DNA of 64,000 nt, from the NCBI GenBank assembly GCA_965203905.1, contig CBDBDQ010000005.1, positions 7,040,001 to 7,104,000 of the forward strand, read 5' to 3'. The number at the start of each line of letters is the position of its first letter. Within the stretch, counting starts at the first letter, position 1. The DNA is from Spirochaetia bacterium (GTDB lineage: Bacteria; Spirochaetota; Spirochaetia; SZUA-6; Bin103). The notes beneath the pieces were generated by a model. The model saw only the letters and a program-made list of their open reading frames with translations, ran no database searches and was not told where the DNA came from. The position numbers and the translations under genes are program-made. This document shows, piece after piece, positions 1-15,287 of the stretch.

Positions 1-446
1 TCCCAGAAGCAGTTGTAGCCACGGTTCGGATTGACCGCCACCGGCAGCGAATTGATCTGCCGGAACACCCCCCACCCCGACGCGAAGAAGTCGGCCACCG
101 GGCACTCCACCGACGGCGTCTCCTGGTGGTCCCAGTAGATGCGCAGGATGTAGAACCGCGCCCGCGGCCCCTGGCGGGAGATATCCCCCGACAGCCACAT
201 CGACTGAATCGCCCCGGGCCCGTCGATGTCGGCGATCGTATAGGTGGTTCCCGGCTCGATGATCACGCTGGGAGAGACCTTCCAGCCCTGACCGAGCTCA
301 CGCGCCGCCCGCGCGCCGGTCCCCTCGGTCGCCCTGCCGCCCTTCCCCTTCTCGCCGGTGGGGTTCTCCGCGGTGATCGACCGCGTCCTGGCCGCCGACA
401 GGCGCGGCAACGTTCCAAGACTCATTCCCAGGCCGCTGAAGCTCAT
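1..446 (-). CDS. DUF2961 / glycoside hydrolase family 172 protein (5' part; runs off the left window edge; absent from the ORF track)
   Basis: Manual translation MSFSGLGMSLGTLPRLSAARTRSITAENPTGEKGKGG...GWKVSPSV...GPGAIQSMW...LRIYWD...PSVECPVADFF is typical of DUF2961; GAGGAGG RBS upstream of ATG 446. Confidence 0.85.
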   Translation of the reverse strand, partial: MSFSGLGMSLGTLPRLSAARTRSITAENPTGEKGKGGRATEGTGARAARELGQGWKVSPSVIIEPGTTYTIADIDGPGAIQSMWLSGDISRQGPRARFYILRIYWDHQETPSVECPVADFFASGWGVFRQINSLPVAVNPNRGYNCFW

Positions 447-508
447 ACTGAAGACCTCCTCAAGGTTCCGTTACTTGGATCTTCGGCGACTGCCGGCATG
501 GCGCACAG
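431..508. repeat. Copy A of an imperfect ~78-bp direct repeat (GH172 upstream region, RBS and first 5 codons)
   Basis: ggccgctgaagctcatactgaagacctcctc...tgccggcatggcgcacag aligns by eye with 4552-4626. Confidence 0.9.
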
Positions 509-609
509 GGCCAACTTCCGATTACGTGGAGGTAGCGTGTCCCGCCGCCACCGGCCGCAGCTCACTGAAAGTGCTCGGATCGTCACGCCATCCTCCCCAG
601 GAACGAACC

Positions 610-2823
610 TCAGGCAGGCGGATGCCGTGGAGGAGCGTCAGCCGACACCATCCTCGCATTGATTTGCTCGATGATATCGTCGGCGACTTCCATTACTTCG
701 ACCGGAGCCCGAACCGCCTCGCCCGCCCGTCTGCGCAGAGCAACCACCAGCGGTGACAGCTCATCGGATTTCTTCTCGTCACTCATCACGATCTCGAGGA
801 GTGCTCGTTCCCGGCAACCGGATGCCGTCAGATCGATCATAATCCCTATTATGTCCTCCAGCGTAGCCTCTGAGCCGTGAAGGTGGGCGGCGTAGAAGTT
901 GCGGAATGCTTCGATGGCATCGTTGCGCTTCCCCTGAAGAAGTAGTGCTTTCGTCCTCATCCACATTGCCCTCTGTCGGAACCTGACGTAGTGGTGGGAA
1001 TCAGGCGGCGACCTATATGCTCTTTCCAGTTCACCGCACGTGCGCAGAGCCTCTTCGGGCCGACCGAGGCGGATCAGTTCGATTCCTTTGTAGCTCAGAG
1101 CCATGGCCACGCGCTGTTGTAGTCCTGACGAGTCGCTGTCGCCGTAGCGGCTGACGAGTTGGTCATAGGTGGCGATTGCGGCCTCCGAGTCATCGAGTTG
1201 GCCTTGTCTGAATCCTTTGTTGACTAGAGCCTTGGCCACCGGCAGTTGGAGTTCTGGGGAGTCGCTGTCGCCATAGCGCGTGAGGAGTTGGTCATAGGTG
1301 GCGATTTCGGCGTTGATGTCGTCGAGTTGGCCTTGGGCCAAACCCTTGTTGAACAGAGCCTCGGCAACCATGGTCTGGGATTGCACCGAGTCGCTGGAAC
1401 CGAGCCTCTCGATCACTCTGTTGGCGGCTTCAAGAGCAGCTTTGAGATCGTCAGGTTTGTGACTCCTGGATTGTGGGTATTTGATTGCAGCCGCCTGATT
1501 GTGTGCCTGCTCGATAATCATAAGTGCCTCAGGCGAAATAACGCCGTCGCTCGGTGACACTTCAATCGCACGCTCCATTCCCTCGAGAATGGAAGGTGAC
1601 TGTGCAGCCTCCATACTCAGTTTTTTGGCCATCTGCGCCAGTTCCGATGCGCTGTAGAACACGGCCATGAAGCGAATCAGGTTGCTCACCACCGCGGCGG
1701 CGTCGCGTTCCCGCCTTAATTTGTAGTAGATGCCGTAGAGTCGCTCCGCTCCCGAATAGAGGCGCTTTCGGCCCCCGCCCTCCGCTATGACCGCACCGCG
1801 ATCGACAAGCCTTGAGAGCATGGTCGACACGGTTCGAACGTCAAGACGTGCGCGGGTGGTGATCTCCCTCGGTGTCGACGGCTGCCAGAGATCAAGGACG
1901 GCAAGATAAACGCGCCGCTCGGTCTTTGCGAAACCTTCGAGATGACTTCGAAAGTACTCGGTATGGTCGTCGATCAACCTCACCAGTTGTTCCATCAGTT
2001 GTCGCAGCGATCGACGTCGCGCGAAGTCGGCGACGAAGACGAGAAGCCGGGGACTGCCGCCGGTCAGGATCTGCAGAGGTCGTATCTCTCTCGCGGGCAC
2101 GTCGTCGCCGCTGACCACGCGCCACAGGCGTCGGGACTCCACGGTATCCAGGCGATCCAGGCGTTCGCTCCTGAACAGCTCGAAGAACGGCTGGTCCACG
2201 TCGTCCAATGCTTCGAAACGGCTGGTGGCGGTGGCCAGCAGCATGATTCGAGGTTCTGACTGGAGCGCCTCACGAAGCTTCCAGCCGAAATGATCGTCCA
2301 CGTCGGCGCACAGGTTCTGCAAGTTCTCGACCATGAACACTAGTTTCCTGCCCAATCGATCGGCCGCATCCAGTACGGCGGCTCGGGCTCGCGGTTCGGT
2401 CAATTCCTCGCCACGCATGCGAGCTGCGAGGGCGGCGTGCGTGTCCAGGAGTTCGCGACCGATCGGGGAGTCGCGTACCGCGCCCTCCCTCGCGAGATAG
2501 AACAGGCATTCCAGCCAGAAGTCCGTCATGTCGAAGATCTCGTGGCTGTCCTCCATGAAGCGAACGGGCAGCAAATGCTTGGCGAGACGAGCATTGGTCC
2601 GCAACTCCGCGGCAACGCGGGCCAGGAGCATTGTCTTCCCGCGGCCGCGAGGGGCGACGAGGAGCACGTGTTGGCAAGAGGAGGCTTCGACGTTCGTCTT
2701 CAAGACTTCGAGCACGATGGCCAGTTCTCGTTCCCTTACCACGAACTGCCGGATCACCTCGTCGTCGGATTGGAACGTTCCGGGATTGGCCTTGCGAATC
2801 GGGTGCTCGAACGAGTCACTCAT
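610..2823 (-). CDS. STAND-like AAA ATPase + winged-HTH + C-terminal TPR repeat protein
   Basis: Walker A APRGRGKT; Walker B-like LVFMVEN; wHTH-like PREITTRARLDVRTVSTMLSRLVDRGAV; 43-aa repeats VAxALxNKG..QGQLDD..A.IATYDQL..RYGDSDS. Confidence 0.85.
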   Translation of the reverse strand: MSDSFEHPIRKANPGTFQSDDEVIRQFVVRERELAIVLEVLKTNVEASSCQHVLLVAPRGRGKTMLLARVAAELRTNARLAKHLLPVRFMEDSHEIFDMTDFWLECLFYLAREGAVRDSPIGRELLDTHAALAARMRGEELTEPRARAAVLDAADRLGRKLVFMVENLQNLCADVDDHFGWKLREALQSEPRIMLLATATSRFEALDDVDQPFFELFRSERLDRLDTVESRRLWRVVSGDDVPAREIRPLQILTGGSPRLLVFVADFARRRSLRQLMEQLVRLIDDHTEYFRSHLEGFAKTERRVYLAVLDLWQPSTPREITTRARLDVRTVSTMLSRLVDRGAVIAEGGGRKRLYSGAERLYGIYYKLRRERDAAAVVSNLIRFMAVFYSASELAQMAKKLSMEAAQSPSILEGMERAIEVSPSDGVISPEALMIIEQAHNQAAAIKYPQSRSHKPDDLKAALEAANRVIERLGSSDSVQSQTMVAEALFNKGLAQGQLDDINAEIATYDQLLTRYGDSDSPELQLPVAKALVNKGFRQGQLDDSEAAIATYDQLVSRYGDSDSSGLQQRVAMALSYKGIELIRLGRPEEALRTCGELERAYRSPPDSHHYVRFRQRAMWMRTKALLLQGKRNDAIEAFRNFYAAHLHGSEATLEDIIGIMIDLTASGCRERALLEIVMSDEKKSDELSPLVVALRRRAGEAVRAPVEVMEVADDIIEQINARMVSADAPPRHPPA
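1100..1400 (-). repeat. Tandem 129-bp (43-aa) TPR-coding repeats
   Basis: Recurring DNA gagtcgctgtcgccrtagcg...gagttggtcataggtggcgat...tcgagttggccttg at about 1130-1206 and 1259-1335. Confidence 0.8.
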
Positions 2824-4058
2824 CGAGGCGCTCGCCGTTCGGCTGAAAAGGGCGGTGCGAGCGAAGCATGGTGATCACGATAGCGTGCAGACCACCAGTC
2901 CTTGAGCAATCGGGAGAGGAAGCGGTATCCGTCGTCGCACGCTTCCAGATAACCGTCGTGCATCAGGACGTCGAGCGCATCCGCGATACGGTCGCGCGCA
3001 TCGTCGACCAGAGTGGAGTGCCGGCGTTCGAGGTTGCGCCGCGCAGCCGCGGTGAATACCTCCTGGGTGGCGGCCTCGGCGAGGATCTCGACCGCGATGC
3101 GATGGGCCTCCTCTTCCAGTCCGTCGCGAAGGCGCGTTTCGTAATGCGCGAGATCGTTCGACCCGGAAGGACCGAGCAGTTCCTTGTGATATACCTCGTC
3201 TACGTCGCTTACGGAAAGCCGGTCGCGGCGCTGCATCGTCGCGAAGTCGCGGAGACGCGCGAAGAAAGACTGCAGATGTTGAGGAATCCCAAGTCCGAGG
3301 GCGTCGTATACCGCCTTGGGAACCGCTTCGTCGACGGCCAGGTCGTAGCTCTCTGCGAGGCGTTCGAAGCACGCGATGCAGGTGTCGTGGCTCCATGGGC
3401 CCAGACGAAAGGGATCGAGATGGTTGATGCGGTCAGGAGTGCCGAGCCGCGCTACCAGGGGTTGGAGGCCGATGCTGCCGGACACGATCAGAACCAGCGA
3501 GCCGTCGCCGAGGTCTTGCAGGACGCCGCGCAGCCAGCTCAGAAACCCGTCGACCTGGCGGGCGTGTGAGTCGCTCTTGAGTAGCCGGTTGAGGAAGATC
3601 GGCAGCTCGTCGATCACGAGGAGCACCGGCCTGTCGTAATGGGCGCAATCGTGGAGCAGTTGCTGTCCGTGACGCCGCCAGTTTCCGGGTTCCAAGCCTG
3701 ATCGGATCTTCACGCTGAAGTCGTAGGCAGTGATCTGCTCGATTCTGTCTTCCAGCCAGTGTCGCATCGTGGCGGCGAATCGGCGCGCGATCGGGCGAAT
3801 CGGATGTACCGCCTCCGCCATGCGGGCGATGACGTCTTCGGGAGAGATGGCGCCCTCGACGTTGACCGGGAGGAAGCCCCATCCCTGGGCTTCCAGTCTT
3901 CGGCCGAGCTCGCGGGCGAGGCTGGTCTTCTCCATGCGGCGCTGGCCGGTGAGCAGCGTATGGTTGAGGTCGCGGATACGGGTCTCCAGCGCCTTCAGTT
4001 CCTGCTCGCGGTCGAAGAAGTCGTCGCCGCTCACCCAGCGGCCTGTCGATGATTTCAC
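2820..4058 (-). CDS. P-loop AAA ATPase (ATPase_2/STAND-like) with a degenerate Walker A
   Basis: N-terminal FFDREQEL; Walker A GQRRMEKT (E where GKT expects G); Walker B LLVIDELP; SGS sensor; GTG 4058 with AGGAGG RBS; stop overlaps the next start (ATGA). Confidence 0.85.
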   Translation of the reverse strand: MKSSTGRWVSGDDFFDREQELKALETRIRDLNHTLLTGQRRMEKTSLARELGRRLEAQGWGFLPVNVEGAISPEDVIARMAEAVHPIRPIARRFAATMRHWLEDRIEQITAYDFSVKIRSGLEPGNWRRHGQQLLHDCAHYDRPVLLVIDELPIFLNRLLKSDSHARQVDGFLSWLRGVLQDLGDGSLVLIVSGSIGLQPLVARLGTPDRINHLDPFRLGPWSHDTCIACFERLAESYDLAVDEAVPKAVYDALGLGIPQHLQSFFARLRDFATMQRRDRLSVSDVDEVYHKELLGPSGSNDLAHYETRLRDGLEEEAHRIAVEILAEAATQEVFTAAARRNLERRHSTLVDDARDRIADALDVLMHDGYLEACDDGYRFLSRLLKDWWSARYRDHHASLAPPFSAERRAPR

Positions 4059-4135
4059 GGGATCCTCCTGAGAAACCACAGTTTCTTCCTTGATTGCGCC
4101 GGCCCGCGGGCCGGTAGGAAGCTCCTAACGGGCTG

Positions 4136-4165
4136 AGTATATTCATATTACAAAAACGTTGTCAA
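4136..4165 (-). promoter_or_regulatory. Sigma70-type promoter for the ATPase pair
   Basis: TTGACA-18 bp-TATACT on the minus strand in an AT-rich patch; nearby TACAA-N5-TTGTA palindrome at 4179-4193. Confidence 0.7.
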
Positions 4166-4387
4166 CGAATCTGTAGCTTACAAATCGGTTGTATCCGAGG
4201 GCCGACGACTTTCAGACTTCCAGACCTCAGGCAGAGTCAGGTGACACGTCGGGCCAGAGAGCAACCTGCCGGATGTCGCCGGTAGCCTCGAGGGTATGAA
4301 GTGCGCAGGCGTGGCGCAGGGCGTGTGGTGTGATGGCCTTGCGACCGAGTGCATCGCCGTGGGGCACCTCGTGGCGTTCGTCCTCGG

Positions 4388-4560
4388 CATGGTGCACCCC
4401 GTTTCGCGGCGCGCTGCTGACCGGACGCTACCCACACCAGACCGGGGTGGTGGCGAACGGGTGCCGGCTGGCGCCGGAGCTGCCCACGGTGGCCCACGCC
4501 TTCGCCGCCGCCGGCTACCACACCGCCTACGTCGGCAAGTGGAACCTGGACGGCCGCTGA
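4388..4560 (+). pseudogene. Internal fragment of a sulfatase gene (paralog of 25719-27152)
   Basis: WCTPFRGALLTGRYPHQTGVVANGC..PELPTVAHAF..AGYHTAYVGKWNLDG nearly matches the intact sulfatase; both termini missing. Confidence 0.9.
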
Positions 4561-4626
4561 AGCTCATGCTGAAGACCTCCTCGAAGATCCGTTACTTTAT
4601 TCGGCGGCTGCCGGCGTGGCGCACAG
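4552..4626. repeat. Copy B of the direct repeat; orphan GH172 start (MSFSG) plus RBS
   Basis: ggccgctgaagctcatgctgaagacctcctc...tgccggcgtggcgcacag. Confidence 0.9.
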
Positions 4627-4876
4627 CGCGCCTTCGGAATAAACAGGATTGCGCGATGTCGGTAAGAAAGTAGGCGCATACTTCCGGCCTCCAGCCATGG
4701 TGCTCCCGCTAACCGCATCTGTTCTCTTCGCGTTCGGTCCGTACGGTCAGTCGTGATGAGATCCGACGATGATGTGCTCACGCCGGTGCATGTGAGTCAG
4801 CACCGGCACTCCGTAAACGGAAGACCATGAAAGTCGATGCACGGGCATCGGCTGCTGGCCGGCATTTTCCGACCAG

Positions 4877-5961
4877 TCACGCCTTACTCTCCCGTTGTCC
4901 GGAAGTGTAGCGGTAGTCGAACACCGACGACGACCCACGCATCTCGCGAAACCACAATGTGGCGCTGGCGCCCATCGAGTCGGTCAGGCGGACCGCTTCG
5001 TCGATTTTGAGCTGCACCGGCTGCTGGAGCCCGTCGTTGATTGCCACGTTGTCAGCGGAGAGGTACGTACGGTCCAGGCTGTCCAGCAGGGGATTCAGGC
5101 GTCCGCGGATACCCGGCAGGTGCCCCGAGCGGTTGGCGATGATAAACGAGCCGCCGTCAGCCGCGGGTTTCATGCGCAGCTCAAGCGGTTCATCCGGCAG
5201 GTAGTCGTTCACCACCCGAGCCCGGTAGCCCGGTGCGGCGCACAGCATGGTCACCGGCAGCCGTGCGTACAGCTCGAAGTCCGCATGTCCGAACGCATCG
5301 GTGCGTACAGCACATGTATGCCCTGCAGAGGCTCGCCGGTTTCGTCATGAAGAATCTTGACGCGTGCCGCGATACCATCCGGCAAGGGCGGACTCGCCGC
5401 CGGCAGGACGAGGTTCGTCAGAATAATCTCGGCGGGATCGTTGGTACGCGAACTCGCGTAGCGCTGCCACAACTCCGGGCGCAAGCTGTTGACGCCGGTG
5501 TTGCCGACCACCTGCGTATCGGTGGCCCGACGGATTTCGTCGGGCTGCATTTGGCGCTTGCTATCGCCGCGCCGCCGGAAATAACCGCCGGGCGAACGAT
5601 GAACGGTGTCGCCGGCGGGTACCTCGACGAGCAGCACGCCCCCGCCGCCCGGTGGCAGGGCCGGCACCCGGTACAAGCTGAACTCCAGTGGCGGTTCGAC
5701 GCTGTCCGAACATACTTCGGTCACAAGACTCGCCAGCGCGTTCAGCCGCTCCGGTTCAAGCGACTGGCGCTCGCGATCGTTCGTGACGCCCAGGACGAGA
5801 CGGCCGCCACCGGAGTTGGCGAATGCCGCAAGCCCGTCCGCGAGTCCGTCCCGGTGAGGGGCAGAGACCTGTTTGCCGGGAAACCGAGCTTCCTTGAGCT
5901 CGAGACCGGTGTCTTCACCGAGCCGGACCTCTTCCCAGAACCGCTGGGCATCGATTGCCAT
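4877..5961 (-). pseudogene. Schlafen/AlbA_2 (RecG-like ATP-binding family) gene with internal deletion and frameshift
   Basis: LGEDTGLELKE...LADGLAAFANSGGGRLVLGVTND is the AlbA_2 motif; no HATPase-like middle domain follows; at ~5305 the frame shifts and VRTDAFGHADFELYARLPVTMLCAAPG continues into ORF 4877-5254. Confidence 0.75.
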
Positions 5962-6061
5962 CGCTTCTATCCTACCTGGCAGTCAGTCGGCTGACAGCCG
6001 GCCTCGCTCGGCATCGGTAGCCACGCAAGCGCCATGACACGGGAGGCGCCTGCAGCAGGCG

Positions 6062-7495
6062 TCAGCGCCAAGCGTAGCCGTACAGGTAGGCACCGCGCAT
6101 GGTGAGTCGGAGGGCGACGTTGGCGGCGGGACAGCGCGTGCCTCCGGCCCACTTGACCACAGCGCAGGTGTGGTCGCCGGTCAGCGGCGTGCACTCCTCG
6201 CGCCGGTATCCCTCCAGCGGCCGGCCGTCGCGCAGCAACTCGCAGGTGACCTGCCCGCCGGGCTTGGTTACCGCGTTGATGACCAGCTCGCGTCCGCGTA
6301 CGTCGGCCAGCGGCCTGGTGGTGAGCACGCCCTCGTGGCCGCCGCCCGCCGCCGACACCGCCGCCCACATGCGCCCCTTGCGCCAGGACGCGCGGCAGAA
6401 GGCGCCGTGGAACAGGTAGGCGGTCTCGTCGACGGAGTAGGTATCGCCATGCAGCCCCTCCAGCGCGCCGTAGAACAGCACCAGGTCGTCGCCATCCTCC
6501 ACCAGGGTCCGCGTGGGCCACAGCATGCCGCCGCCATAGTCGCCCAGGGGGGCCAGCGGCAGGCACGGGCGCCGTGCCGGACGCCACCAGCTCAGCGGCT
6601 CGCCGCTGGCCGATGCCGCAAACTGCAGGTCCATCTCCTGCAGGCGGCTGTGGTACACCGCCGTGAGGCCGATGAAGCCGTCCCCATACGGCTGTCTCCC
6701 CACCTCCATGATCTGGTCACCCTGGCTGTCGAGCCAGTCCGGCACCATGTTCAAGGCCGATGGCGTCCATACCCGCCCGTCCGCGCTGCGGCACTGAAAG
6801 GAGGCGCGACAGCCGCGTGGATCGACGTCATAGGGCGCCCAACCGCCCGGGTAGTTGGGTATGGAGGTCTTGTGATGGCTCACGTAGCTGCCATCCGGGT
6901 CCTTGTGCACCTGCAGGGTGTCGTCGCTGCGGATGTCGATCGGCCCGTGGTCCGGGCGCCAGTGGATGCCGTCGCGGGAACGGTAGCGGTACAGGCCGTA
7001 GCCGGCCGCGGCGCCGAACCCCGCCACCCGTCTCGCGGGGCACTTCCAGCTCGCATCGCGCAGGCAGAACATCTCGTAGGGTTCCTCGGGATGCGCCTCC
7101 GGATCGACGAACACCGAGGCGTACGTGGTGCGTCCGCCGGATTCGTAGTCGAAGACGATATTGGTACGCGGATAGCCCTCGTACGGGCACAGGTCCAGTT
7201 CCGGCCGGGTCCACTCTCGGCCATCCTCCGAGACCACGTGCACCAGGCGGAAATCGTGCTTGCCACGGGCATGATGCAGGTTCTCCTGCACCGCCACGAA
7301 CCAGCCTTTCCAGCGGCCGTCGATGGGGTCGCGGAGCACGGTGCCGTGGCCGGTGCAGGTAGACGCACTGTCCCAGGGGTAGCGCGGCTCCAGCAACACC
7401 TGGCAGTCACGGGCCTGCTCGATACGCCACGCAACGTTGCGACGCTGCTCGAAATCGTCGGCGTAAATGATCGGCGGATAGGTTTGGTAGTCCAT
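6062..7495 (-). CDS. Uncharacterised beta-propeller glycoside-hydrolase-like protein (GH32/GH-J-like), paralog 1
   Basis: EPRYPWD, GTVLRDP, S.DG..W.RPEL, SRDGIHW Asp-box-like motifs; C-terminal beta-sandwich-like GVLTTRP...L.INA...Y.F.W. Confidence 0.65.
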   Translation of the reverse strand: MDYQTYPPIIYADDFEQRRNVAWRIEQARDCQVLLEPRYPWDSASTCTGHGTVLRDPIDGRWKGWFVAVQENLHHARGKHDFRLVHVVSEDGREWTRPELDLCPYEGYPRTNIVFDYESGGRTTYASVFVDPEAHPEEPYEMFCLRDASWKCPARRVAGFGAAAGYGLYRYRSRDGIHWRPDHGPIDIRSDDTLQVHKDPDGSYVSHHKTSIPNYPGGWAPYDVDPRGCRASFQCRSADGRVWTPSALNMVPDWLDSQGDQIMEVGRQPYGDGFIGLTAVYHSRLQEMDLQFAASASGEPLSWWRPARRPCLPLAPLGDYGGGMLWPTRTLVEDGDDLVLFYGALEGLHGDTYSVDETAYLFHGAFCRASWRKGRMWAAVSAAGGGHEGVLTTRPLADVRGRELVINAVTKPGGQVTCELLRDGRPLEGYRREECTPLTGDHTCAVVKWAGGTRCPAANVALRLTMRGAYLYGYAWR

Positions 7496-7528
7496 CAGTC
7501 ACCTCTCGGCGGTGGATTCGGCGCAACG

Positions 7529-7599
7529 GATGTCGTGACATCGTAGCAGAGCCGGGCCCGGTCCGCATCCTTGACGGCGTACGGGGCCGGAGCTAATCT
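7529..7599 (+). promoter_or_regulatory. Sigma70 promoter of ABC operon 1 with an upstream palindrome
   Basis: TTGACG(7571-7576)-17 bp-TAATCT(7594-7599); GATGTC-GT-GACATC palindrome at 7529-7542. Confidence 0.6.
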
Positions 7600-7667
7600 G
7601 TCCTATTCACGGCCCGGGAGTGCGCGCCGTGTCTCCCGGGCTGGTACTACCGACCGAGGAGGTTGCC

Positions 7668-9551
7668 ATGCGAAACGCAGTGTTCGTGGCGTTGGGGCTT
7701 TGGCTCCTGGCGAGTTCGGCTGCAATGGCCGAAGGGAGCGGTGAGCGGAGCGAGGGAGCGGGCCGTGCCGCCTCCGTTGGGCAGATGGAAGCGCCGATGC
7801 TCCAGGCCAAGGTGGCGCGTGGAGAGCTTCCACCTCTGGAGCAGCGCATTCCGAAAGAACCCTACGTCTATACGATGGCGGCGGAAATCGGCTTCTACCA
7901 GCCGGGGCCGCTGACCGTTGCCGAGGCGAACGTCGACACCCCGTTCTGGCCGGCCGGCGAGCCCTGGGGATACGTACGATTCAAACGCGACTACAGCGAA
8001 GTGGAGCCGTATTTCGGCAAGGGCTGGAGCTGGAACGACGACTTCACCGAGCTCACCATCTTCCTGCGCGAGGGGTTGAAGTGGTCCGACGGTGACGACT
8101 ACACCGCGGACGACGCCGAGTTCTACTACAACGGCATCCAGCAGCATCCGGAGGGCTTCCGCACTCCCATCGGCAATCTGCTCAGGGTGGAGAAGATCGA
8201 CACCTGGAGCTTCAAGTACGTCCTGGAGCAGCCCGATCCCACCTTCCTGCAGCGCATCGCCGTCAACTGGGGACCGCTGCGCGCTCCGCGCCACCGGTTG
8301 GAGCAGTTCCATCCGGACTACAACCAGATCGAGGGCATGACCCGGGCGCAGCAGTGGGAGAAGCTGCAGACCGAGTTCAACTGGAGCACCCACTTCGGCG
8401 ATCCCGAGTGGCCGGTGCTGTGGCCCTGGGTGCTGCACGAAGTACGTCCCGGAATCGGCGTGCGGATGGAGCGCAACCCCTACTACTGGTGGGTAGACCG
8501 GGAAGGCAGACAGCTACCGTACATCGACGAAGTGCGCAGCGTGGTGGCGCGCAGCTCCGAGGTCCTGGCGTTGAAGCTGCTGGCCGGCGAGGTGGACGAG
8601 GCGCACCGCAACACCAACATCGAGATGGTGCCGGTGATGCTCGACGAGGGCAGCAGGCGCGGTCTGGAAGTGAAGCTCTATCCCACCGAGTACGGCAGTC
8701 CGTGGGCGGTCGGCTTCAACTACATGAACTCGGATCCGACCAAGCGTGAGTTGTTTCGTACCGCGGAGTTCCGCCAGGCGCTGTCGCTGGCGATCAACCG
8801 CAAGCTGATCAACCGCGTCGGGCTGCTCGGTCTGGGCAAGCCCACCCAGGGGTACCTGATCCCCAACTCCCCCTGGTATACCGAAGAGGTGAATACGGCG
8901 TTCGTCGAGCACGATCCCGAGCGCGCAAACGAGATGCTCGACGCGCTCGGATTGGGACCGCGCGACGGTGAAGGGTTCCGGCTCGGCCCGGCAGGGGAGC
9001 CGCTCAGCCTCGTCTACTATGTGGCCGTGCGGGGTGAGCTGGACGTCCCGATTGCGCAGTACGTGGTGGACGGCTGGCGTTCGGTCGGCGTGCGCACCCT
9101 GCTGCGCACCATTCCCCAGGAACAGCTCACCAACGCCATCAGGACCGCGGACTTCGACACCGTGCAGACCGGCTTGCGCGGCTCGATGTACCCCATCGAG
9201 CTGTTCCGGCGTGGTGGCGGCGGGATCATTCCCGGCGGCGGCTGGGGCCTGCAGGAGGAGCACCTCTACTGGCAGAGCAACGGCCAGCAGGGGCGGGCAC
9301 CCGATGCCGACGTGGCGGCGCTGTTCGCGCTGATCGACGAAGCCCGCTACGGGCTAGACGAAGCCAAGCGCGCGGCGGCGTACCGGCGCTACATCGAGTG
9401 GATGACGGACAACATTCCGGTCATCGGCCTGGCCGGGCCGAGCAAGGAACTGTTGGTCCACAAGAGCTCGCTGCGCAACGTGCCCGAGGACGTCCTGGTG
9501 GGCGGTGGGCGCTGGGACCGCGGTTCACCGTCGTGGTTCTTCGAGGAGTAA
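7668..9551 (+). CDS. ABC transporter substrate-binding protein, family 5 (OppA/DppA-like)
   Basis: Signal peptide; EAPMLQAKVARGELPPLEQRIP; LREGLKWSDG..YTADD; RNPYYW.VD..G.QLPYID; GAGGAGG RBS before ATG 7668. Confidence 0.92.
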   Translation: MRNAVFVALGLWLLASSAAMAEGSGERSEGAGRAASVGQMEAPMLQAKVARGELPPLEQRIPKEPYVYTMAAEIGFYQPGPLTVAEANVDTPFWPAGEPWGYVRFKRDYSEVEPYFGKGWSWNDDFTELTIFLREGLKWSDGDDYTADDAEFYYNGIQQHPEGFRTPIGNLLRVEKIDTWSFKYVLEQPDPTFLQRIAVNWGPLRAPRHRLEQFHPDYNQIEGMTRAQQWEKLQTEFNWSTHFGDPEWPVLWPWVLHEVRPGIGVRMERNPYYWWVDREGRQLPYIDEVRSVVARSSEVLALKLLAGEVDEAHRNTNIEMVPVMLDEGSRRGLEVKLYPTEYGSPWAVGFNYMNSDPTKRELFRTAEFRQALSLAINRKLINRVGLLGLGKPTQGYLIPNSPWYTEEVNTAFVEHDPERANEMLDALGLGPRDGEGFRLGPAGEPLSLVYYVAVRGELDVPIAQYVVDGWRSVGVRTLLRTIPQEQLTNAIRTADFDTVQTGLRGSMYPIELFRRGGGGIIPGGGWGLQEEHLYWQSNGQQGRAPDADVAALFALIDEARYGLDEAKRAAAYRRYIEWMTDNIPVIGLAGPSKELLVHKSSLRNVPEDVLVGGGRWDRGSPSWFFEE

Positions 9552-9595
9552 GCACAATCACAGGAGCCCACGTGCACGCGGCGGCACCCTGAGCG

Positions 9596-10717
9596 GTGCC
9601 GCCCGCTGCTCCGAACACCAGCATGCAGCAGGTGATGCTGCGGACCGAGCATCTCAAGACCTGGTTCCCGGTGCGGCGCGGGCTGTTCCAGCGGGTGGTC
9701 GCCCAGATCAGGGCGGTCGACGACGTGAACCTGACCGTATACCGCGGCGAGACGCTGGGAGTCGTAGGCGAGAGCGGCTGCGGCAAGACCACCCTGGGGC
9801 GCACCATCGTCCGGCTCCTGGAGCCGACCGCGGGCCGCGTTCTGTTTCGTACGGGCGAGGGGCTGCAGGATCTGGCGGAGTGCTCCGCGCAGGAGTTGAG
9901 ACAGGTGCGCCGATCCCTGCAGATGGTGTTCCAGGACCCCTACTCCTCGCTCAACCCGCGCATGACGGTGAAGCAGGTCGTGGGTGAGCCGTTGCGGGTG
10001 CAGGGGCTGGCCAGCCGCGACAGCCTCGACCACCGGGTCAGCCGCATGCTGCGCCTGGTGGGGCTGAGCAGCGAGCACCTGGAACGGTTTCCCCACGCCT
10101 TCAGCGGTGGCCAGCGGCAACGGATCGCCATTGCGCGCGCCATGGTGCTGGAGCCAGAGTTCCTGGTGGCCGACGAGCCGGTGTCCGCACTGGACGTCTC
10201 CGTGCAGGCGCAGATCCTGAACCTGCTGCTGGACCTGCAGACCCGCTTTCACCTCACGCTGCTGTTCATCGCCCATGACATAGACCTGATCCGTCACCTC
10301 AGCGATCGCATCGCGGTGATGTACTTGGGGCAGGTGGTGGAAGTCGGCGCCGCCGGGGAGGTGTGCAGCCGGCCGGCGCATCCCTACACCGAGACGCTGC
10401 TTGCATCGGTACCGCTGCCGCTGCCGGGGCGGCAACAACAGCGGCCGTCGAGCGCCGAGGAGCTGCCCGACCCCGCGGATCCACCAGCCGGCTGCTACTT
10501 CCACCAGCGCTGCGGCTACGCCCAGGAGGTGTGCCGGCACGAGTCCCCGGCGCTCGGCGCCGCCGGCACCGGCTCCTCCCAGGTTGCCCGCTGCCACTTC
10601 AGCGACCAACTGCACCTGGATGGTTTGAGCAGCGAGGTGGACGTGGCCCGGGCGGTGGAGCGCAGCAGGCGTGACCTCGAAACACGACTCGCGGGGACCG
10701 GCAGGGAACCACCGTGA
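9596..10717 (+). CDS. Oligopeptide ABC transporter ATP-binding protein (OppF-like)
   Basis: GESGCGKT, FQDPYSSLNP, FSGGQRQR, DEPVSALD, C-terminal oligo_HPY with Cys cluster. Confidence 0.93.
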   Translation: MPPAAPNTSMQQVMLRTEHLKTWFPVRRGLFQRVVAQIRAVDDVNLTVYRGETLGVVGESGCGKTTLGRTIVRLLEPTAGRVLFRTGEGLQDLAECSAQELRQVRRSLQMVFQDPYSSLNPRMTVKQVVGEPLRVQGLASRDSLDHRVSRMLRLVGLSSEHLERFPHAFSGGQRQRIAIARAMVLEPEFLVADEPVSALDVSVQAQILNLLLDLQTRFHLTLLFIAHDIDLIRHLSDRIAVMYLGQVVEVGAAGEVCSRPAHPYTETLLASVPLPLPGRQQQRPSSAEELPDPADPPAGCYFHQRCGYAQEVCRHESPALGAAGTGSSQVARCHFSDQLHLDGLSSEVDVARAVERSRRDLETRLAGTGREPP

Positions 10718-11700
10718 CCCAGTACGTGCTGCGGCGGGTGATCCATGTCATCCCGCTACTGATCCTGGTCTCGATCATTTCCTTTCTCCTCATCCAACTG
10801 CCGCCCGGCGACATTGCCGAGACCTTCATCCTGCAGCGGATTCAGCTCGGCGACTATCCGGACGAAACGGAGATACGGAAGATCCGCGAACGCTACCTGC
10901 TGGACCGCCCCATCTACGAGCAATACCTGAGATGGGTGGTGGGGTTCACCCGTGGCGACTGGGGGTACTCCTACCTCAGGGGCAAGTCGGTGCGCGAGCT
11001 GATCGGCGAACGGATCGTGCTCAGCATCGTGATCTCGGTAGCCGGCATCCTGTTTGCCTACCTGGTGGCAATCCCCTTCGGCATCTACTCGGCCACGCAC
11101 CAGTATTCGGTGGGCGACACCGCGGTCTCGTTCGCCGCCTTCATCGGCATGGCCACTCCCAACTTCCTGCTGGCGCTGGTACTCATGTTCATCAGCGTGA
11201 TGGTGTTCGGGGCCTCTTCGGTCGGTGGCCTGTTCTCGCCGCAGTACATCATGGAGCCGTGGAGCCTGGGCAAGGTGGTCGACTTCCTGAAGCACCTGTG
11301 GATGCCCATGATCATCGTGGGAACGGCCGGCGCCGCCAGCAAGACCCGCATCATGCGCGGCAACCTGCTCGACAACCTGGAGCAGCCGTTCGTCGACACC
11401 GCGCGCATGAAGGGGCTCACCGAGCGGGCCGTGGTCAACAAACACGCCGTACGCGCGTCCATCAACCCGCTGATCAGCATCTTGGGGCTCACGTTCCCCG
11501 CGATGATTTCCGGGGAGGTGATCGTCGGCGAGGTGATGGGGCTGCCCACCATCGGTCCGATGCTGCTGGAGGCGTTGCGGGCGCAGGACATGTACCTGGC
11601 GGGGGCGGTGATCATGATTCTTTCAGTCGCCCTGATCGCCGGCAATCTGCTCGCCGACATCGCCCTGGCCTGGCTGGATCCGCGGATCCGCTACCGCTAG
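10714..11700 (+). CDS. ABC permease (OppB/DppB-like)
   Basis: Hydrophobic; LPPGD; TARMKGL EAA loop; LDPRIR C-terminus. Confidence 0.93.
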   Translation: MTQYVLRRVIHVIPLLILVSIISFLLIQLPPGDIAETFILQRIQLGDYPDETEIRKIRERYLLDRPIYEQYLRWVVGFTRGDWGYSYLRGKSVRELIGERIVLSIVISVAGILFAYLVAIPFGIYSATHQYSVGDTAVSFAAFIGMATPNFLLALVLMFISVMVFGASSVGGLFSPQYIMEPWSLGKVVDFLKHLWMPMIIVGTAGAASKTRIMRGNLLDNLEQPFVDTARMKGLTERAVVNKHAVRASINPLISILGLTFPAMISGEVIVGEVMGLPTIGPMLLEALRAQDMYLAGAVIMILSVALIAGNLLADIALAWLDPRIRYR

Positions 11701-11702
11701 GG

Positions 11703-12845
11703 ATGGATCTCGCGCGCGAGCCGGTGGAACCAGCACCGGAAACAGACGCCACGGCCGGGACCTCCCGCGCCGCCCTGCCGCTGCGCGCCCTGATCTGGCA
11801 GCGGTTTCGGCGCAACCGGATCGGCATGCTCGGGCTGGTATTGGTGGGGGGCCTGTACCTGGCGGTGCTGCCGGCGGAGTTCCTGGCCCCCTATACCCTC
11901 GCCTCGCAGTTCTCCGAGCTCACCTTCGCCCCGCCGCAGCGGATCCACTTCGTCGACCAGCACGGCAGATTTTCGCTGCGCCCCTTCGTGTACGGACTGC
12001 ACAGCGAACGCGATCCGCGGACGCTCAGACTCATCACCACCCCCAATATGGACCAGAAGTTCCCGCTGCGCCTCTTGGTGCGGGGCGAGGAAGAATACCG
12101 CTGGCTGCTGTTTCGCAGCCGGGTGCACCTGTTCGGGGTGGAGGAGGGGTACTTCTTCCTGCTCGGAACCGATCGGGTGGGACGTGACCTGTTCACGCGG
12201 ATCCTCTACGGCGGGCGCATCTCGATGACCGTGGGCCTGATCGGCGTACTGGTTTCGGTGGCGCTCGGTTCGTTTCTCGGCATTCTCTCCGGCTACTTCG
12301 GGGGCCTGCTCGATGACTTGATGCAGCGCGGCGTCGAGCTGCTGATCAGCATCCCAACCCTGCCGCTGTGGCTGGTGCTGGCGGCGGCGGTGCCCCCGGA
12401 ATGGTCGCCGCTGGTGGTGTTCTTCATGATCACCCTGATCCTCTCCCTGGCAAGCTGGGGCGGGCTGGCGCGGGAGGTGCGCGGGCTGGCGCTGTCGCTG
12501 CGCTCCCGCGAGTTCGTGCTCGCCGCCAGAACGGCGGGGGCGCGCAACGGCTGGATCCTCCTCCACCACCTCCTTCCCAGTTGCTCCAGCCACATCATCG
12601 TGCGTGCCACCCTGGCGATTCCCGGCATGATCCTCGGCGAGACCTCGCTCAGCTTTCTCGGACTCGGCATCCGCCCACCGATGACCAGTTGGGGCGTGTT
12701 GCTGCAGGAGGCGCAGCGGGTCTCGGTGCTGGCGCACCACCCGTGGCTGGTGCTGCCGGTGTTCCTGGTCATCATGGCGATCCTGGGATGGAACTTCCTG
12801 GGCGACGGCATCCGTGACGCAGCCGATCCCTACGCCGAGAACTGA
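11703..12845 (+). CDS. ABC permease (OppC/DppC-like)
   Basis: LGTDRVGRDLFTR; ETSLSFLGLG..PP..SWG; GDGIRDAADPY; start set to ATG 11703. Confidence 0.93.
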   Translation: MDLAREPVEPAPETDATAGTSRAALPLRALIWQRFRRNRIGMLGLVLVGGLYLAVLPAEFLAPYTLASQFSELTFAPPQRIHFVDQHGRFSLRPFVYGLHSERDPRTLRLITTPNMDQKFPLRLLVRGEEEYRWLLFRSRVHLFGVEEGYFFLLGTDRVGRDLFTRILYGGRISMTVGLIGVLVSVALGSFLGILSGYFGGLLDDLMQRGVELLISIPTLPLWLVLAAAVPPEWSPLVVFFMITLILSLASWGGLAREVRGLALSLRSREFVLAARTAGARNGWILLHHLLPSCSSHIIVRATLAIPGMILGETSLSFLGLGIRPPMTSWGVLLQEAQRVSVLAHHPWLVLPVFLVIMAILGWNFLGDGIRDAADPYAEN

Positions 12846-12846
12846 C

Positions 12847-13848
12847 GTGGAAGCCGACACGATCCTCGACATCACGGACCTGCACGTACACTTCCTGCTC
12901 GGCGCTGGGAGCGTGCGGGCCGTCAACGGCGTGAGCCTGCGCGTGCTGCGGCAGCGCACGTTCGGAATCGTCGGCGAAAGCGGCTGCGGCAAGAGCGTCA
13001 CTGCTCTTTCCACCGTGCAGTTGATCAAGATGCCTCCCGGCAAGATCGTGGCGGGAAGCATTCTCCTGCATCGGGATGGCACCACCCTGGACCTCGCCAG
13101 GCTACCACGCAACGGGAGGGAGTTGCGCCGGATCCGCGGCAACGAGATTGCCGTGATCTTTCAGGATCCGATGAGCGCGCTCCATCCGATGTACAGCATC
13201 GGCGACCAGATCGCCGAGGGGCTGCGCCGCCATCGCCCGGAGCTCGGGCGCGCCGAGCAGAACGAAATCGTGCTGCAGATGCTGGCCAGCGTGGGTCTGC
13301 CCAACCCCGGCCGGCTGGCGCTGGACTACCCGCACAACCTGAGCGGTGGCATGCGCCAACGGGCGATGATTGCATTGGCGCTGGCATGCAACCCGCGCCT
13401 GTTGATCGCCGATGAACCCACCACCGCGCTTGATGTGACCGTACAAGCCCGCATTCTGAGTCTGATCGACCGACTGCAGGAGCAGCTCGGCATGGCGGTG
13501 GTACTGATCTCGCACGACCTCGCGGTGATCGCCGAGAACGCCGACGAGGTGGCGGTGATGTACCTCGGAGAAGTCGTGGAGTCAGGCAGCGTCGACGCGG
13601 TGTTCTCGTCACCGTTACACCCCTACACGCTCGGGTTGTTCCAATCGATACCGGCGTTGCAGCGGCAACGGCGCGCACCGCTGAACGCATTGCGTGGATC
13701 CGTGCCCGGGCCGTATCAGGTGCCGCAGGGTTGCGTGTTCAAGGATCGCTGCCCATTCCGCCATGCCGCGTGCGAGCGCGAGCCGCCGGTGCTGGAACCG
13801 GAGCCGGGACACGCGGTGAAATGCTGGCTGTTCGATCCCCCGCCATGA
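12847..13848 (+). CDS. Oligopeptide ABC transporter ATP-binding protein (OppD-like)
   Basis: GESGCGKS, LSGGMRQR, ADEPTTALDVT, HPYT. Confidence 0.93.
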   Translation: MEADTILDITDLHVHFLLGAGSVRAVNGVSLRVLRQRTFGIVGESGCGKSVTALSTVQLIKMPPGKIVAGSILLHRDGTTLDLARLPRNGRELRRIRGNEIAVIFQDPMSALHPMYSIGDQIAEGLRRHRPELGRAEQNEIVLQMLASVGLPNPGRLALDYPHNLSGGMRQRAMIALALACNPRLLIADEPTTALDVTVQARILSLIDRLQEQLGMAVVLISHDLAVIAENADEVAVMYLGEVVESGSVDAVFSSPLHPYTLGLFQSIPALQRQRRAPLNALRGSVPGPYQVPQGCVFKDRCPFRHAACEREPPVLEPEPGHAVKCWLFDPPP

Positions 13849-15287
13849 CCGATTACCGCGTCAACCCGCCGGTCCTCTTTGCCGACGACTTTGTCGAACG
13901 CCACAACATAGCGTGGCGCGTCGAGCCCGCGCACGATCGCACCGTGTTGCTGGAACCGGCCTTCCCGTGGGACGGAGCCCTGGTCTGCAAGGGACACGGG
14001 ACCGTGCTGAAGGACCCGCGCGACGGCTTGTTCAAGGGCTGGTTCGTCGCGGTGGAAGAGGATCTGGGCTACCGGCGCGGTCGTCAGGAGTACCGCCTGG
14101 TGTACGTGGAGTCGCGCGACGGGTGGCAGTGGGAGCGGCCGCCGCTGGACCTGTGCCCCTACCCCGGACATCCGCACACAAACATCCTGTTCGACTACGA
14201 CTCGGGAGGCCGCACTTCCTACGCCTCGGTACTGGTGGACGAGGACGACGTCGCCGAGCCGTACCAGATGTTCTGTTTCCGTGATCCGAGCTGGAAATGT
14301 CCGGGCGGCGTGGTGCCGGGGTTCGGGCACGAAGCCGGCTACGGCCTGTACCGCTATCGGTCTGCCGACGGCATCCACTGGCGGCCCCAGCACGGCCCGC
14401 TGGACATCGCCAGCGACGATACGCTGTACGTTCACCGGGACCCTGACGGAACCTACGTCTCCCACCACAAGAAGTCGATTCCCAACTATCCGGGCGGGCA
14501 CACCCCGTACGACGTCGACCCCGCGGGGTCGCGCAACGCCTTTGCCGCCACCAGCGCGGACGGCGTGCACTGGCAGCCCTCCACCATCGCCATGACACCG
14601 GACCGGCTCGACCGGCAGGGCGATCAGATCATGGAGCTGGGCCGCCACCCGTACAACGGCGGCTTCGTCGGGATCACCGCGGTGTACCACAGCCGGCATC
14701 AGGAGATGGACCTGCAGGTGGCGGCGTCACCCGACGGCCGGCCGCTGAGCTGGTGGCGGCCGTCGCGGCGGCCGTGCCTGCCGCTGGCGCCGCTGGGAGA
14801 GTATGGCGGCGGGCTGATCTGGCCCACCCGTACCCTGGTTGAGGATGGCGATCAGTGGGTGCTGTACCACGGCGCCACCGAGGGCCTGCACGGCGACGCC
14901 TACGCGCGCGATGAGAGTGTGCTGCTGTTTCACGGCGCGTTCTGCCGGGCGTCATGGCGCAAGGGCCGCATGTGGGCCGCGGTGCCGGCGGCCGGCGGTG
15001 GGCAGGAAGCAAGCTTGACCAGCAATCCGGCCCCGAAGGCGCGCGGCCGGCAATTGATCGCGAACGTCGTCACCCGGCCCGGCGGCCGGCTCCTCTGCGA
15101 GCTGTTGCGCGATGGCAGCCCGGTCGCCGGCTACGGCCGAGCCGACTGCGTGCCGGTGTCCGGTGACGAGACCTGCGCACTGGTCCGCTGGCGCGCAGGC
15201 GCGCACTGCCCGGCGGATGGACTGGCGCTGCGCCTGTATCTGCGCGGAGCCTGCCTCTACGGCTTCGGCTGGCAGGAGGACGCCTGA
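13845..15287 (+). CDS. Uncharacterised beta-propeller glycoside-hydrolase-like protein, paralog 2
   Basis: Colinear and highly similar to 6062-7495 (shared GHGTVL.DP, FDY.SGGRT.YASV, SIPNYPGG, QGDQIME.GR, FHGAFCRASWRKGRMWAAV); ATGA overlap with the OppD-like gene. Confidence 0.7.
   Translation: MTDYRVNPPVLFADDFVERHNIAWRVEPAHDRTVLLEPAFPWDGALVCKGHGTVLKDPRDGLFKGWFVAVEEDLGYRRGRQEYRLVYVESRDGWQWERPPLDLCPYPGHPHTNILFDYDSGGRTSYASVLVDEDDVAEPYQMFCFRDPSWKCPGGVVPGFGHEAGYGLYRYRSADGIHWRPQHGPLDIASDDTLYVHRDPDGTYVSHHKKSIPNYPGGHTPYDVDPAGSRNAFAATSADGVHWQPSTIAMTPDRLDRQGDQIMELGRHPYNGGFVGITAVYHSRHQEMDLQVAASPDGRPLSWWRPSRRPCLPLAPLGEYGGGLIWPTRTLVEDGDQWVLYHGATEGLHGDAYARDESVLLFHGAFCRASWRKGRMWAAVPAAGGGQEASLTSNPAPKARGRQLIANVVTRPGGRLLCELLRDGSPVAGYGRADCVPVSGDETCALVRWRAGAHCPADGLALRLYLRGACLYGFGWQEDA

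Follow-up and report, generated by a model that had tools for sequence, protein, structure and literature searches.

A near-obligate pair of a STAND-like TPR protein and a second AAA+ ATPase in a Spirochaetia genome and its relatives across phyla

This analysis concerns two overlapping genes near the left end of a 64,000-nt stretch of DNA from a Spirochaetia bacterium (GenBank assembly GCA_965203905.1, contig CBDBDQ010000005.1, positions 7,040,001 to 7,104,000 of the forward strand). The whole stretch is hereafter called the window, and positions refer to it unless stated otherwise. The two genes, designated A and B, lie on the minus strand and overlap by an ATGA at 2820-2823 (the plus strand reads tcat); A encodes a small AAA+ ATPase, and B encodes a STAND-like NTPase carrying tandem units that resemble the tetratricopeptide repeat (TPR). 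The features of the locus are collected in Table 1. The A-B module is uncharacterised, near-obligately paired and horizontally spread across phyla with its own promoter. As to its role, we tentatively prefer the view that the locus combines a STAND-type sensor with an AAA+ partner in a conflict or immune module.

The initial annotation of this DNA had described two P-loop ATPase genes overlapping by ATGA behind their own TTGACA/TATACT promoter, and the open reading frames (ORFs), the Pfam matches and a promoter scan all agree with that description. The longest ORF of A (2820..4079, minus strand, GTG start) would encode 419 aa. Since the N-terminus typical of the A family (M-K/R/N-S-S/A-T-G-R-W) aligns with a GTG at 4055, which has an AGGAGG 5 nt upstream, the start is most likely at this GTG, giving a protein of 411 aa; the same GGAGGATCC-start arrangement is present in close relatives of A. 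The promoter-like site upstream of A agrees with the consensus at 11 of 12 positions and is the sole sigma-70-like site in 1-6000, a count that equals the chance level (mean of 1.1 in shuffled sequences). Thus, the promoter is credible because of its position and because a homologous -35/-10 arrangement lies upstream of A in relatives, and not because of the count. The leader of the window copy is approximately 55 nt longer than in close relatives, and the extra part holds the 16-mer CCGGCCCGCGGGCCGG, which occurs twice in the genome. The leader RNA (4050-4130) had a predicted folding energy of -28.1 kcal/mol (z = -1.04), with 31 of 200 shuffled sequences folding equally well. One fold showed anti-Shine-Dalgarno pairing, which was discarded as unsupported, the fold being no better than those of the shuffles. 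Rfam gave no match at E<=0.1 in window 1-7000, and a tRNA scan of 1-15000 returned no genes and hence no tRNA integration site.

Table 1. Positions of the A-B module, its parts and its borders in the window
Feature	Position	Strand	Details
Left copy of imperfect ~80-bp direct repeat	431..511	.	brackets the putative inserted segment
Gene B, STAND-like NTPase	610..2823	-	737 aa, ATG start; predicted NTPase, helical domain, winged helix, TPR-like array, C-terminal helical domain
C-terminal helical domain of B, residues ~610-737	613..996	-	motif PLVVALR..GE.VRAP.EV
43-residue TPR-like units of B, residues 458-599	1027..1452	-	two full (485-526, 527-569) and two partial
Winged helix-turn-helix of B, residues 297-356	1756..1935	-	Pfam TrmB 6.8e-7, 29.5 bits vs cutoff 25.6
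Gene A, AAA+ ATPase	2820..4055	-	411 aa from GTG (most likely start); predicted lid, helical domain, C-terminal winged helix
Codon GAG (Glu) at P-loop Gly of A	3930..3932	-	GQRRMEKTS vs GQRRMGKTS
Leader, ~74-80 nt	4056..4135	-	contains perfect 16-nt palindrome CCGGCCCGCGGGCCGG at 4099-4114
Promoter-like site	4136..4165	-	-35 TTGACA (4165-4160), 18-nt spacer, -10 TATACT (4141-4136)
Palindrome GTTGNCAAC (GTTGACAAC on minus strand)	4158..4166	.	contains -35 box; candidate operator
Sulfatase fragment, 76 aa	4330..4557	+	Pfam Sulfatase 2e-10; inside the putative insert, ends exactly at right repeat
Right copy of imperfect ~80-bp direct repeat	4552..4629	.	brackets the putative inserted segment

The module was detected as a pair in nearly all loci where A occurs. 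Among 24 genomes of the window's bacterial family, 45 matches to A were merged into 36 loci, and in 33 of these a match to the B NTPase lies no more than 100 bp downstream of A. The remaining three comprise one locus with B 2.7 kb away and two short, weak A matches with no B nearby; apart from these two fragments, no A was found without B in the bacterial family, and thus no full-length one, while 11 of the 45 B matches there have no A. Outside the genus, B is directly downstream of A in all eight loci, down to approximately 30% identity; a ninth locus (L009) was left out, as its match spans 52 residues only. Pairs of 63-65% identity occur in Defluviicoccus and Gemmatimonadota, and pairs of approximately 30% in Dechloromonas/Azonexus, a soil Proteobacteria bin and Acidobacteriota, with the identities of A and B falling in step (65/57, 63/55, 39/41 and 30/28%). 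Named relatives are also found in Nitrospinota and Chloroflexota, and the genome of the window itself harbors three A-B pairs, the copies being 40-65% identical to one another. Separately, the pair of approximately 30% identity adjoins cobalamin genes in Dechloromonas/Azonexus and the soil Proteobacteria bin (a CobT-type DBI_PRT gene in L003, L005 and L007; CobS in L006), an adjacency that probably reflects synteny shared among close relatives rather than any functional link.

The family is large and its distribution is patchy. Among 8000 candidates scored, 1568 are relatives of A at E<=1e-3, and an exhaustive library contains 3371 A clusters (50% identity) at the same threshold, a number that falls to 562 at E<=1e-30. 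Among the best 150 clusters listed, 81 are 380-445 aa long, and most of the others are shorter and apparently fragments. The 2783 relatives of B are mostly 950-1280 aa long. A phylum-wide sample of 301 genomes contained the A gene in one genome; within the order it is present in 20 of 92 genomes, and it is concentrated in the window's own family, where 16 of 23 genomes have it, with up to seven matches per genome. The sources and libraries consulted give these proteins generic names only ("ATP-binding protein", "tetratricopeptide repeat protein"), and no description of the pair was found in a literature search, bioRxiv preprint supplements lying outside its reach. A total of 589 STAND clades have been defined (PMC13581612), and B may belong to one of them; the one accession of a B relative that was looked for is absent from the seven text supplements of that article.

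Contigs containing parts of the stretch were recovered from 23 runs, including sponge and coral metagenomes but no RNA data set, and close relatives come from bins of host-associated samples. These sources recall the idea, also raised in the initial annotation, that B is a 'eukaryotic-like' TPR protein through which a symbiont interacts with its animal host. We consider this very improbable: B is an ATPase of cytoplasmic type, whose P-loop fold starts close to the N-terminus with no other domain before it, it is near-obligately paired with another ATPase, and the family is also present in Dechloromonas/Azonexus, which are not symbionts, and in the soil Proteobacteria bin. The suggestion of a role in host interaction therefore found no support.

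Concentrating on the individual proteins, A matches Pfam AAA_16 at 2.1e-6, below the cutoff, and more weakly AAA_22, nSTAND6 and ATPase_2; its score against PF01637 is 16.5 bits, under the gathering cutoff of 33.2, and many A relatives have a precomputed match to that family. The AlphaFold2 model of A, built from an 84-row alignment (predicted local distance difference test, pLDDT, 94.2; predicted template modelling score, pTM, 0.92), has an AAA+ core of five strands together with a lid, a helical domain and, at the C-terminus, a winged helix. The best Foldseek matches of the model were 2fna and 2qen (E 1e-10, target-normalised template modelling score, TM, 0.67), followed by archaeal Orc1/Cdc6 and RuvB, and they included no nuclease or other enzyme fold; a profile search of the PDB with A retrieved 2qen at 2.9e-6. 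Judged by its model, A belongs with the small AAA+ proteins of Orc1/Cdc6-like or PF01637-like type; it has a winged helix, lacks a sensor and is not an NLR. Its AAA+ base, lid and C-terminal winged helix are shared with the PF01637 proteins SSO1545 (2fna) and PABY2304 (2qen) and with archaeal Orc1/Cdc6; unlike PF01637 proteins, A is coupled to a STAND-TPR gene and scores below the cutoff of that family.

The Walker B motif of the A family, hhhhDE[LV]P, has the usual hydrolytic form. At the P-loop position preceding the Lys, all 13 aligned close relatives have Gly, as do 82 of the 84 rows of the alignment, one other row having Asp and the window copy alone having Glu. Over 3660-3961, a contig of run X1 shows no difference from the window, although this run is possibly the source sample itself. 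Owing to the Gly-to-Glu exchange, the Walker A motif of the window's A is not intact and its ATPase activity is probably impaired, a defect that the initial annotation had already implied.

B matches Pfam AAA_16 above the cutoff (1.1e-7), as well as TPR_6 and, through its winged helix, TrmB; relatives match HTH_20, MarR and HVO_A0114, and one B paralog matches ORC-CDC6-like at 4.8e-8. In the AlphaFold2 model of B (pLDDT 81.5, pTM 0.54), the P-loop fold starts at approximately residue 25, with no other N-terminal domain, and the NTPase is followed by helices, by the winged helix, within which lies a beta hairpin at 345-358, and by further helices to the C-terminus. The best Foldseek matches were the STAND-TPR protein 6mfv, Avs3, Orc1/Cdc6, Apaf-1, SAMD9, NLRP9, Avs5 and CED-4. 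The features expected of STAND proteins, namely a P-loop with Walker A and B, a NOD module and a C-terminal repeat array, are all present in B, and the model supports the view that B is built like a STAND/NLR receptor without an N-terminal effector. The Foldseek E-values for Orc1/Cdc6 were similar to those of the STAND matches, and on the model the placement of B in STAND rather than in the sister group Orc/Cdc6 is not sharp. Walker A ([AG]xRGxGK[ST]) and Walker B (hhhV[E/D]N) are conserved in all 38 rows, the window's B having APRGRGKT and hhhVEN. Because the second acidic residue of Walker B is replaced by Asn, the motifs suggest that B binds nucleotide and hydrolyses it slowly. A profile-profile comparison of A with B aligned 48 columns around the P-loop only, with a probability of 35%; as the shared part is confined to the P-loop neighbourhood, A and B are not recent paralogs.

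The C-terminal domain of B comprises approximately 130 residues, all-helical in the model, with invariant columns and a motif that is kept in relatives of 23-25% identity; against Atlas its scores did not exceed 0.88 and no informative family was found. A complex prediction with A and residues 1-440 and 600-737 of B gave a score of 0.00 and a mark of 0.32, which counts neither for nor against binding. Pfam, PADLOC, NCBIfam and the predicted folds showed no nuclease, TIR or SIR2 domain in either protein, in accordance with the initial annotation, and its description of B as carrying a winged helix-turn-helix and tandem 43-aa TPR units was borne out by the TrmB and TPR_6 matches and by the repeat analysis described below.

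The 43-residue unit corresponds to a 129-nt direct repeat (1081-1209 and 1210-1338, 79% identical). According to a hidden Markov model of the unit, 121 B proteins have a median of 12 units, with a range of 2-16, the window copy being at the low end with two full and two partial units. Within these 121 proteins, entropy between the units reaches 1.07-1.5 bits at positions 2, 5, 8, 12 and 13 of the unit and drops to 0.17-0.28 bits at the framework positions 3, 4, 6, 7, 10 and 11 (VA.AL..KG). The variable positions are located in the first helix of the unit in the B model, where, being spaced i, i+3/4, they share one face, and this one-face variability fits a diversifying binding surface. With a Glu in the P-loop of A and two full repeat units in B, the window copy itself is probably crippled.

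The two genes also differ in how they decay. Of the 33 pairs with adjacent genes, 13 have an A that is split, truncated or stopped, and in 11 of these B retains a frame of at least 800 aa; the converse, an intact A with a B below 700 aa, was observed in three. Set against gene length, 11 of 14 gives a binomial p of 2.6e-4, which is overstated, since orthologous loci of related genomes are not independent. In addition, metagenome contigs from two studies (runs X2 and X8) join 2848 to 3960, which removes most of A, and likewise join 940 to 1632, which removes the repeats of B; the likeness at these joins was 88%, and their sides measured 70 and 163 letters in one run and 30-31 letters in the other. 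The contigs indicate that natural variants lacking the array or lacking A exist, presumably in other strains or close relatives. The preferential breakage of A, the joins and the lack of any full-length A without B together suggest that A is the costly one of the two.

A congener lacks the module. In that genome (G303, contig 44; locus L019), the parts matching window 1-501 and 4875-5416 are only approximately 245 bp apart, and this empty site indicates that the module together with a sulfatase fragment is an inserted segment of approximately 4.1 kb that the congener lacks. G + C content is 0.56-0.65 over the module (intervals within 751-4000), compared with 0.65-0.72 in most flanking intervals. 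The putative insert is bracketed by the two copies of an imperfect direct repeat, which are 87% alike and are the only two in the genome. A second case is locus L024 (G305:C3), where a module with a frameshifted A is flanked by a direct duplication of neighbouring gene sequence of approximately 730 bp, 95-99% alike (5749-6482 and 10578-12251 in that contig, the right copy interrupted). The other 10 of 12 loci examined have no flanking repeats, which are therefore not a general feature of the module. The duplicated, diverged flanks could be the scar of a circular donor fragment that integrated by a single crossover. As for the sequences involved, the flanking repeat of the window duplicates the start and upstream region of a DUF2961 gene, and the sulfatase fragment matches, at 91% nucleotide identity, a portion of the sulfatase gene located at window 25896-26060.

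Insertion next to duplicated target DNA, seen in the window and in L024, brings to mind a selfish addiction-type module or the maintenance relic of a mobile element, in which A would be a harmful DNA-binding Orc1/Cdc6-like AAA+ protein and B would restrain it, so that the module would persist since losing B is costly, and not for the benefit of the host. The asymmetry between the partners is as this explanation would have it, with B occurring without A in 11 of 45 cases, no full-length A occurring without B, and A preferentially inactivated; the Orc1/Cdc6-like fold, the repeated palindromes beside the module's own gene and the consensus promoter also accord with it. Nevertheless, we regard it as improbable. 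Transposase, integrase and replication genes do not accompany the module, the divergence of the copies within one genome (40-65% identity) argues against a recent burst, phage records gave no match and plasmids gave four weak matches only, and a 1000-residue partner with a hypervariable array exceeds what an antitoxin needs.

Beyond the insert, the flanking DNA contains a broken gene with a Schlafen/AlbA_2 domain (gene at 5251-5961, Pfam 3.4e-13; whole region at window 4877-5961, minus strand), and the congener G303 has approximately 620 bp extra between the parts matching window 4875-5416 and 5414-6041. Further to the right, a 477-aa ORF (6062-7495) has a paralog of 72% nucleotide identity on the opposite strand at window ~13866-15286 (match 6056-7477; G000:C5:7053866-7055286), and dozens of paralogs of the ABC-transporter genes at 9.6-11.7 kb occur throughout the genus.

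The region upstream of A is marked by short palindromes, which were found in related form in every subfamily examined. The subfamily that resembles the window copy often has two copies at a distance of 15 bp, such as GTTGTCAAC-N6-GTTGACAAC; the subfamily of 40% identity has GTTGGCAAC and GTAGCCAAC, the 30%-identity subfamily of the same bacterial family has TTGCCAAAA and TTGGCAAAA, Betaproteobacteria have TTTACAAC, and the Acidobacteriota locus has three overlapping ACAAC..GTTGT palindromes. In the 100 bp upstream of A in 14 loci, GTTG/CAAC tetramers occur 48 times, compared with 11.7 expected (Poisson 2e-15); the window's own site falls just outside this range because of its long leader. Nine of another 14 loci have a site with no more than one mismatch in the 100 bp upstream, the background being 3.2e-4 per bp. 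In the genome of the window, there are 88 exact GTTGNCAAC sites against 78 expected, one of them upstream of each of the three modules, and a genome-wide search for a GTTGNCAAC regulon found none, with only one other pair of sites within 80 bp. Taken together, these patterns indicate that the module carries its own promoter and a candidate operator that changes along with the proteins, and one of the two winged helices may repress the operon through GTTGNCAAC.

Such an arrangement would also suit a pair of signal-sensing transcription regulators of the STAND class (MalT, LAL or AfsR-like), in which B senses a metabolite or a protein through its TPR array and, together with A, binds DNA via the winged helices and controls at least its own operon, taking no part in conflict. 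The winged helix of B, which exceeds the Pfam cutoff for TrmB and matches HTH_20, MarR and HVO_A0114 in relatives, the operator-like palindromes that overlap the promoter in every subfamily, the lack of an effector domain in either protein and the lack of an excess of defence neighbours are all in keeping with it. The module shares with MalT, LAL and AfsR a predicted switch that depends on ATP, a sensor made of helical repeats, the potential to bind DNA and repeated promoter sites. However, Pfam detects no LuxR-type or SARP output domain, the sole HTH-type element in B being the TrmB-like winged helix inside the NOD module, and the module consists of two proteins. Moreover, neighbours differ between loci, so that no conserved target genes or regulon emerge, and GTTGNCAAC is neither enriched elsewhere in the genome (88 vs 78) nor clustered at any set of genes. 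A housekeeping regulator would not usually occur in up to seven copies per genome, be a pseudogene so often, show insertion polymorphism or be transferred across phyla at 63-65% identity, and the variation of the repeats on one helix face also speaks against this role. A self-regulating signal-transduction pair of this kind is, in our opinion, the main rival explanation, albeit an unlikely one.

The explanation that we prefer, although tentatively, is that of a STAND-type sensor with an AAA+ partner in a conflict or immune module. B would be a STAND-type switch whose NTPase probably binds ATP and hydrolyses it poorly, with the array of 43-residue TPR-like units serving as the ligand sensor. 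A would be its translationally coupled AAA+ partner and the output or executor once B has been triggered, acting on DNA or another universal component of the cell and being harmful when unchecked, and the operon is probably repressed by one of the winged helices acting on the GTTGNCAAC palindrome, which overlaps the -35 box. The role would be in intracellular conflict, that is, defence against phages or mobile elements by sensing a foreign protein, with no enzymatic effector encoded. What the data show directly is the pairing and its architecture, the mobile nature of the module, the variable repeats, the operator-like motif and the way the genes decay; ligand sensing, the part of A as executor, autoregulation and the role in defence are what we infer. 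A more specific version, which we hold to be doubtful, is an effector-less NLR-like immunity, in which B would hand its activated state to the hydrolysis-competent A, and A would load on DNA via its winged helix and arrest replication or transcription, the module being kept silent by its own GTTGNCAAC operator.

Several observations weigh against a role in defence. Neither protein matches a model of known or candidate systems in PADLOC-DB v2.0.0, the best values being 2.5e-4 for A (mad8) and 0.0066 for B, and NCBIfam likewise returned no significant match; the statement of the initial annotation that no named system could be assigned thus holds. For the neighbourhoods, ORFs within 6.5 kb on each side of the module were compared with PADLOC, and a locus was counted if any protein matched at the permissive threshold of E<=1e-20. 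Matches were found at 9 of 11 modules of a first batch (none at L001 and L024), at 5 of 14 of a second batch and not at the window itself, where none of the 12 flanking proteins matched; among random loci, they were found at 4 of 12 in the window's own genome (L029-L040) and at 10 of 20 in genomes of relatives (L070-L089). In total, 14 of the 26 module loci have a known or candidate defence neighbour, as do 14 of the 32 random ones (Fisher one-sided p=0.31). The enrichment seen early (9/11 vs 4/12, p=0.026) was not replicated in the second batch (5/14) and has been dropped as support. The defence association proposed in the initial annotation, which had itself named the lack of one as grounds for rejecting its proposal, is accordingly not above background. 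This comparison has little power, the background in the lineage being very high: random 13-kb neighbourhoods contain HEC-01, PDC-S01/S02, type I and IIG restriction-modification, HmaC, AbiU and PD-T4-4, while 1.5% of random genes lie within 5 kb of a DefenseFinder system by a different, stricter criterion (PMC12803255). Guilt by association with defence genes therefore carries almost no weight in this lineage.

The same reading is also weakened by the other searches. Phage records gave no match to the module, viral contigs gave none in a search with one peptide pattern, and plasmids gave only four weak matches of 21-25% identity. No effector domain was detected in A or B by Pfam, PADLOC or Foldseek, which makes the output step a guess. 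The TM values of whole B in Foldseek are low (0.2-0.3), which is attributable to the multi-domain nature of the model, and the tally of decay counts orthologous, non-independent loci of related genomes.

Comparison with known systems places the module near several of them without full agreement with any. Avs/AVAST proteins (Avs3, PDB 8dgc, second in the Foldseek ranking) resemble B in having an NTPase, a helical domain, a winged helix and a TPR-like sensor, and they resemble the module in their patchy, horizontally spread occurrence. However, Avs carries a fused effector (nuclease, protease, SIR2 or others), whereas B starts directly with the NTPase, and the module, unlike Avs, needs a second, separate AAA+ gene; a fused effector, a match to a curated model and enrichment in defence islands are the Avs features that it lacks. 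The best structural match of B, the archaeal STAND protein of PH0952 type (PDB 6mfv), is likewise an effector-less STAND NTPase with TPRs, but it is undetectable with B by profile search of the PDB and has a whole-chain TM of 0.27-0.30; we know of no partner gene for it. Plant paired NLRs resemble the module by analogy, as two linked NTPase genes that seemingly act together, one of them with a variable sensor. They are arranged head-to-head, whereas A and B form a co-directional overlapping operon, and A has neither a sensor nor NLR architecture. Thus, of the sensor/helper pair of NLR type envisaged by the initial annotation, the STAND/NLR-like nature of B, as indicated by Foldseek, and the conservation of the pair stand, while A is not an NLR and the parallel is one of analogy only. 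In BREX, the defence-linked ORC/Cdc6-STAND AAA+ proteins BrxC and BrxD have winged helices and are described as DNA-binding scaffolds and not nucleases (PMC12839542); unlike in BREX, no PglZ, methyltransferase or other BREX genes are near the module, and its score against the NCBIfam model of BrxC (0.038; 12 bits, cutoff 400) is negligible.

The comparisons outline a very large cross-phylum family in which a STAND-TPR sensor is paired with a second AAA+ protein and no effector can be recognised. To our knowledge, the bacterial NLR-like receptors studied so far have the effector on the same chain. If the effector-less immunity outlined above were true, the A family, with at least 562 clusters (50% identity, E<=1e-30), would represent a widespread immunity that operates without nuclease, NADase, protease or pore. 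If the module is immune in function, it would offer a new route from recognition to growth arrest, and if it is a regulator, the combination of a conserved operator with a variable array would make it a tractable model for how STAND switches evolve new ligands.

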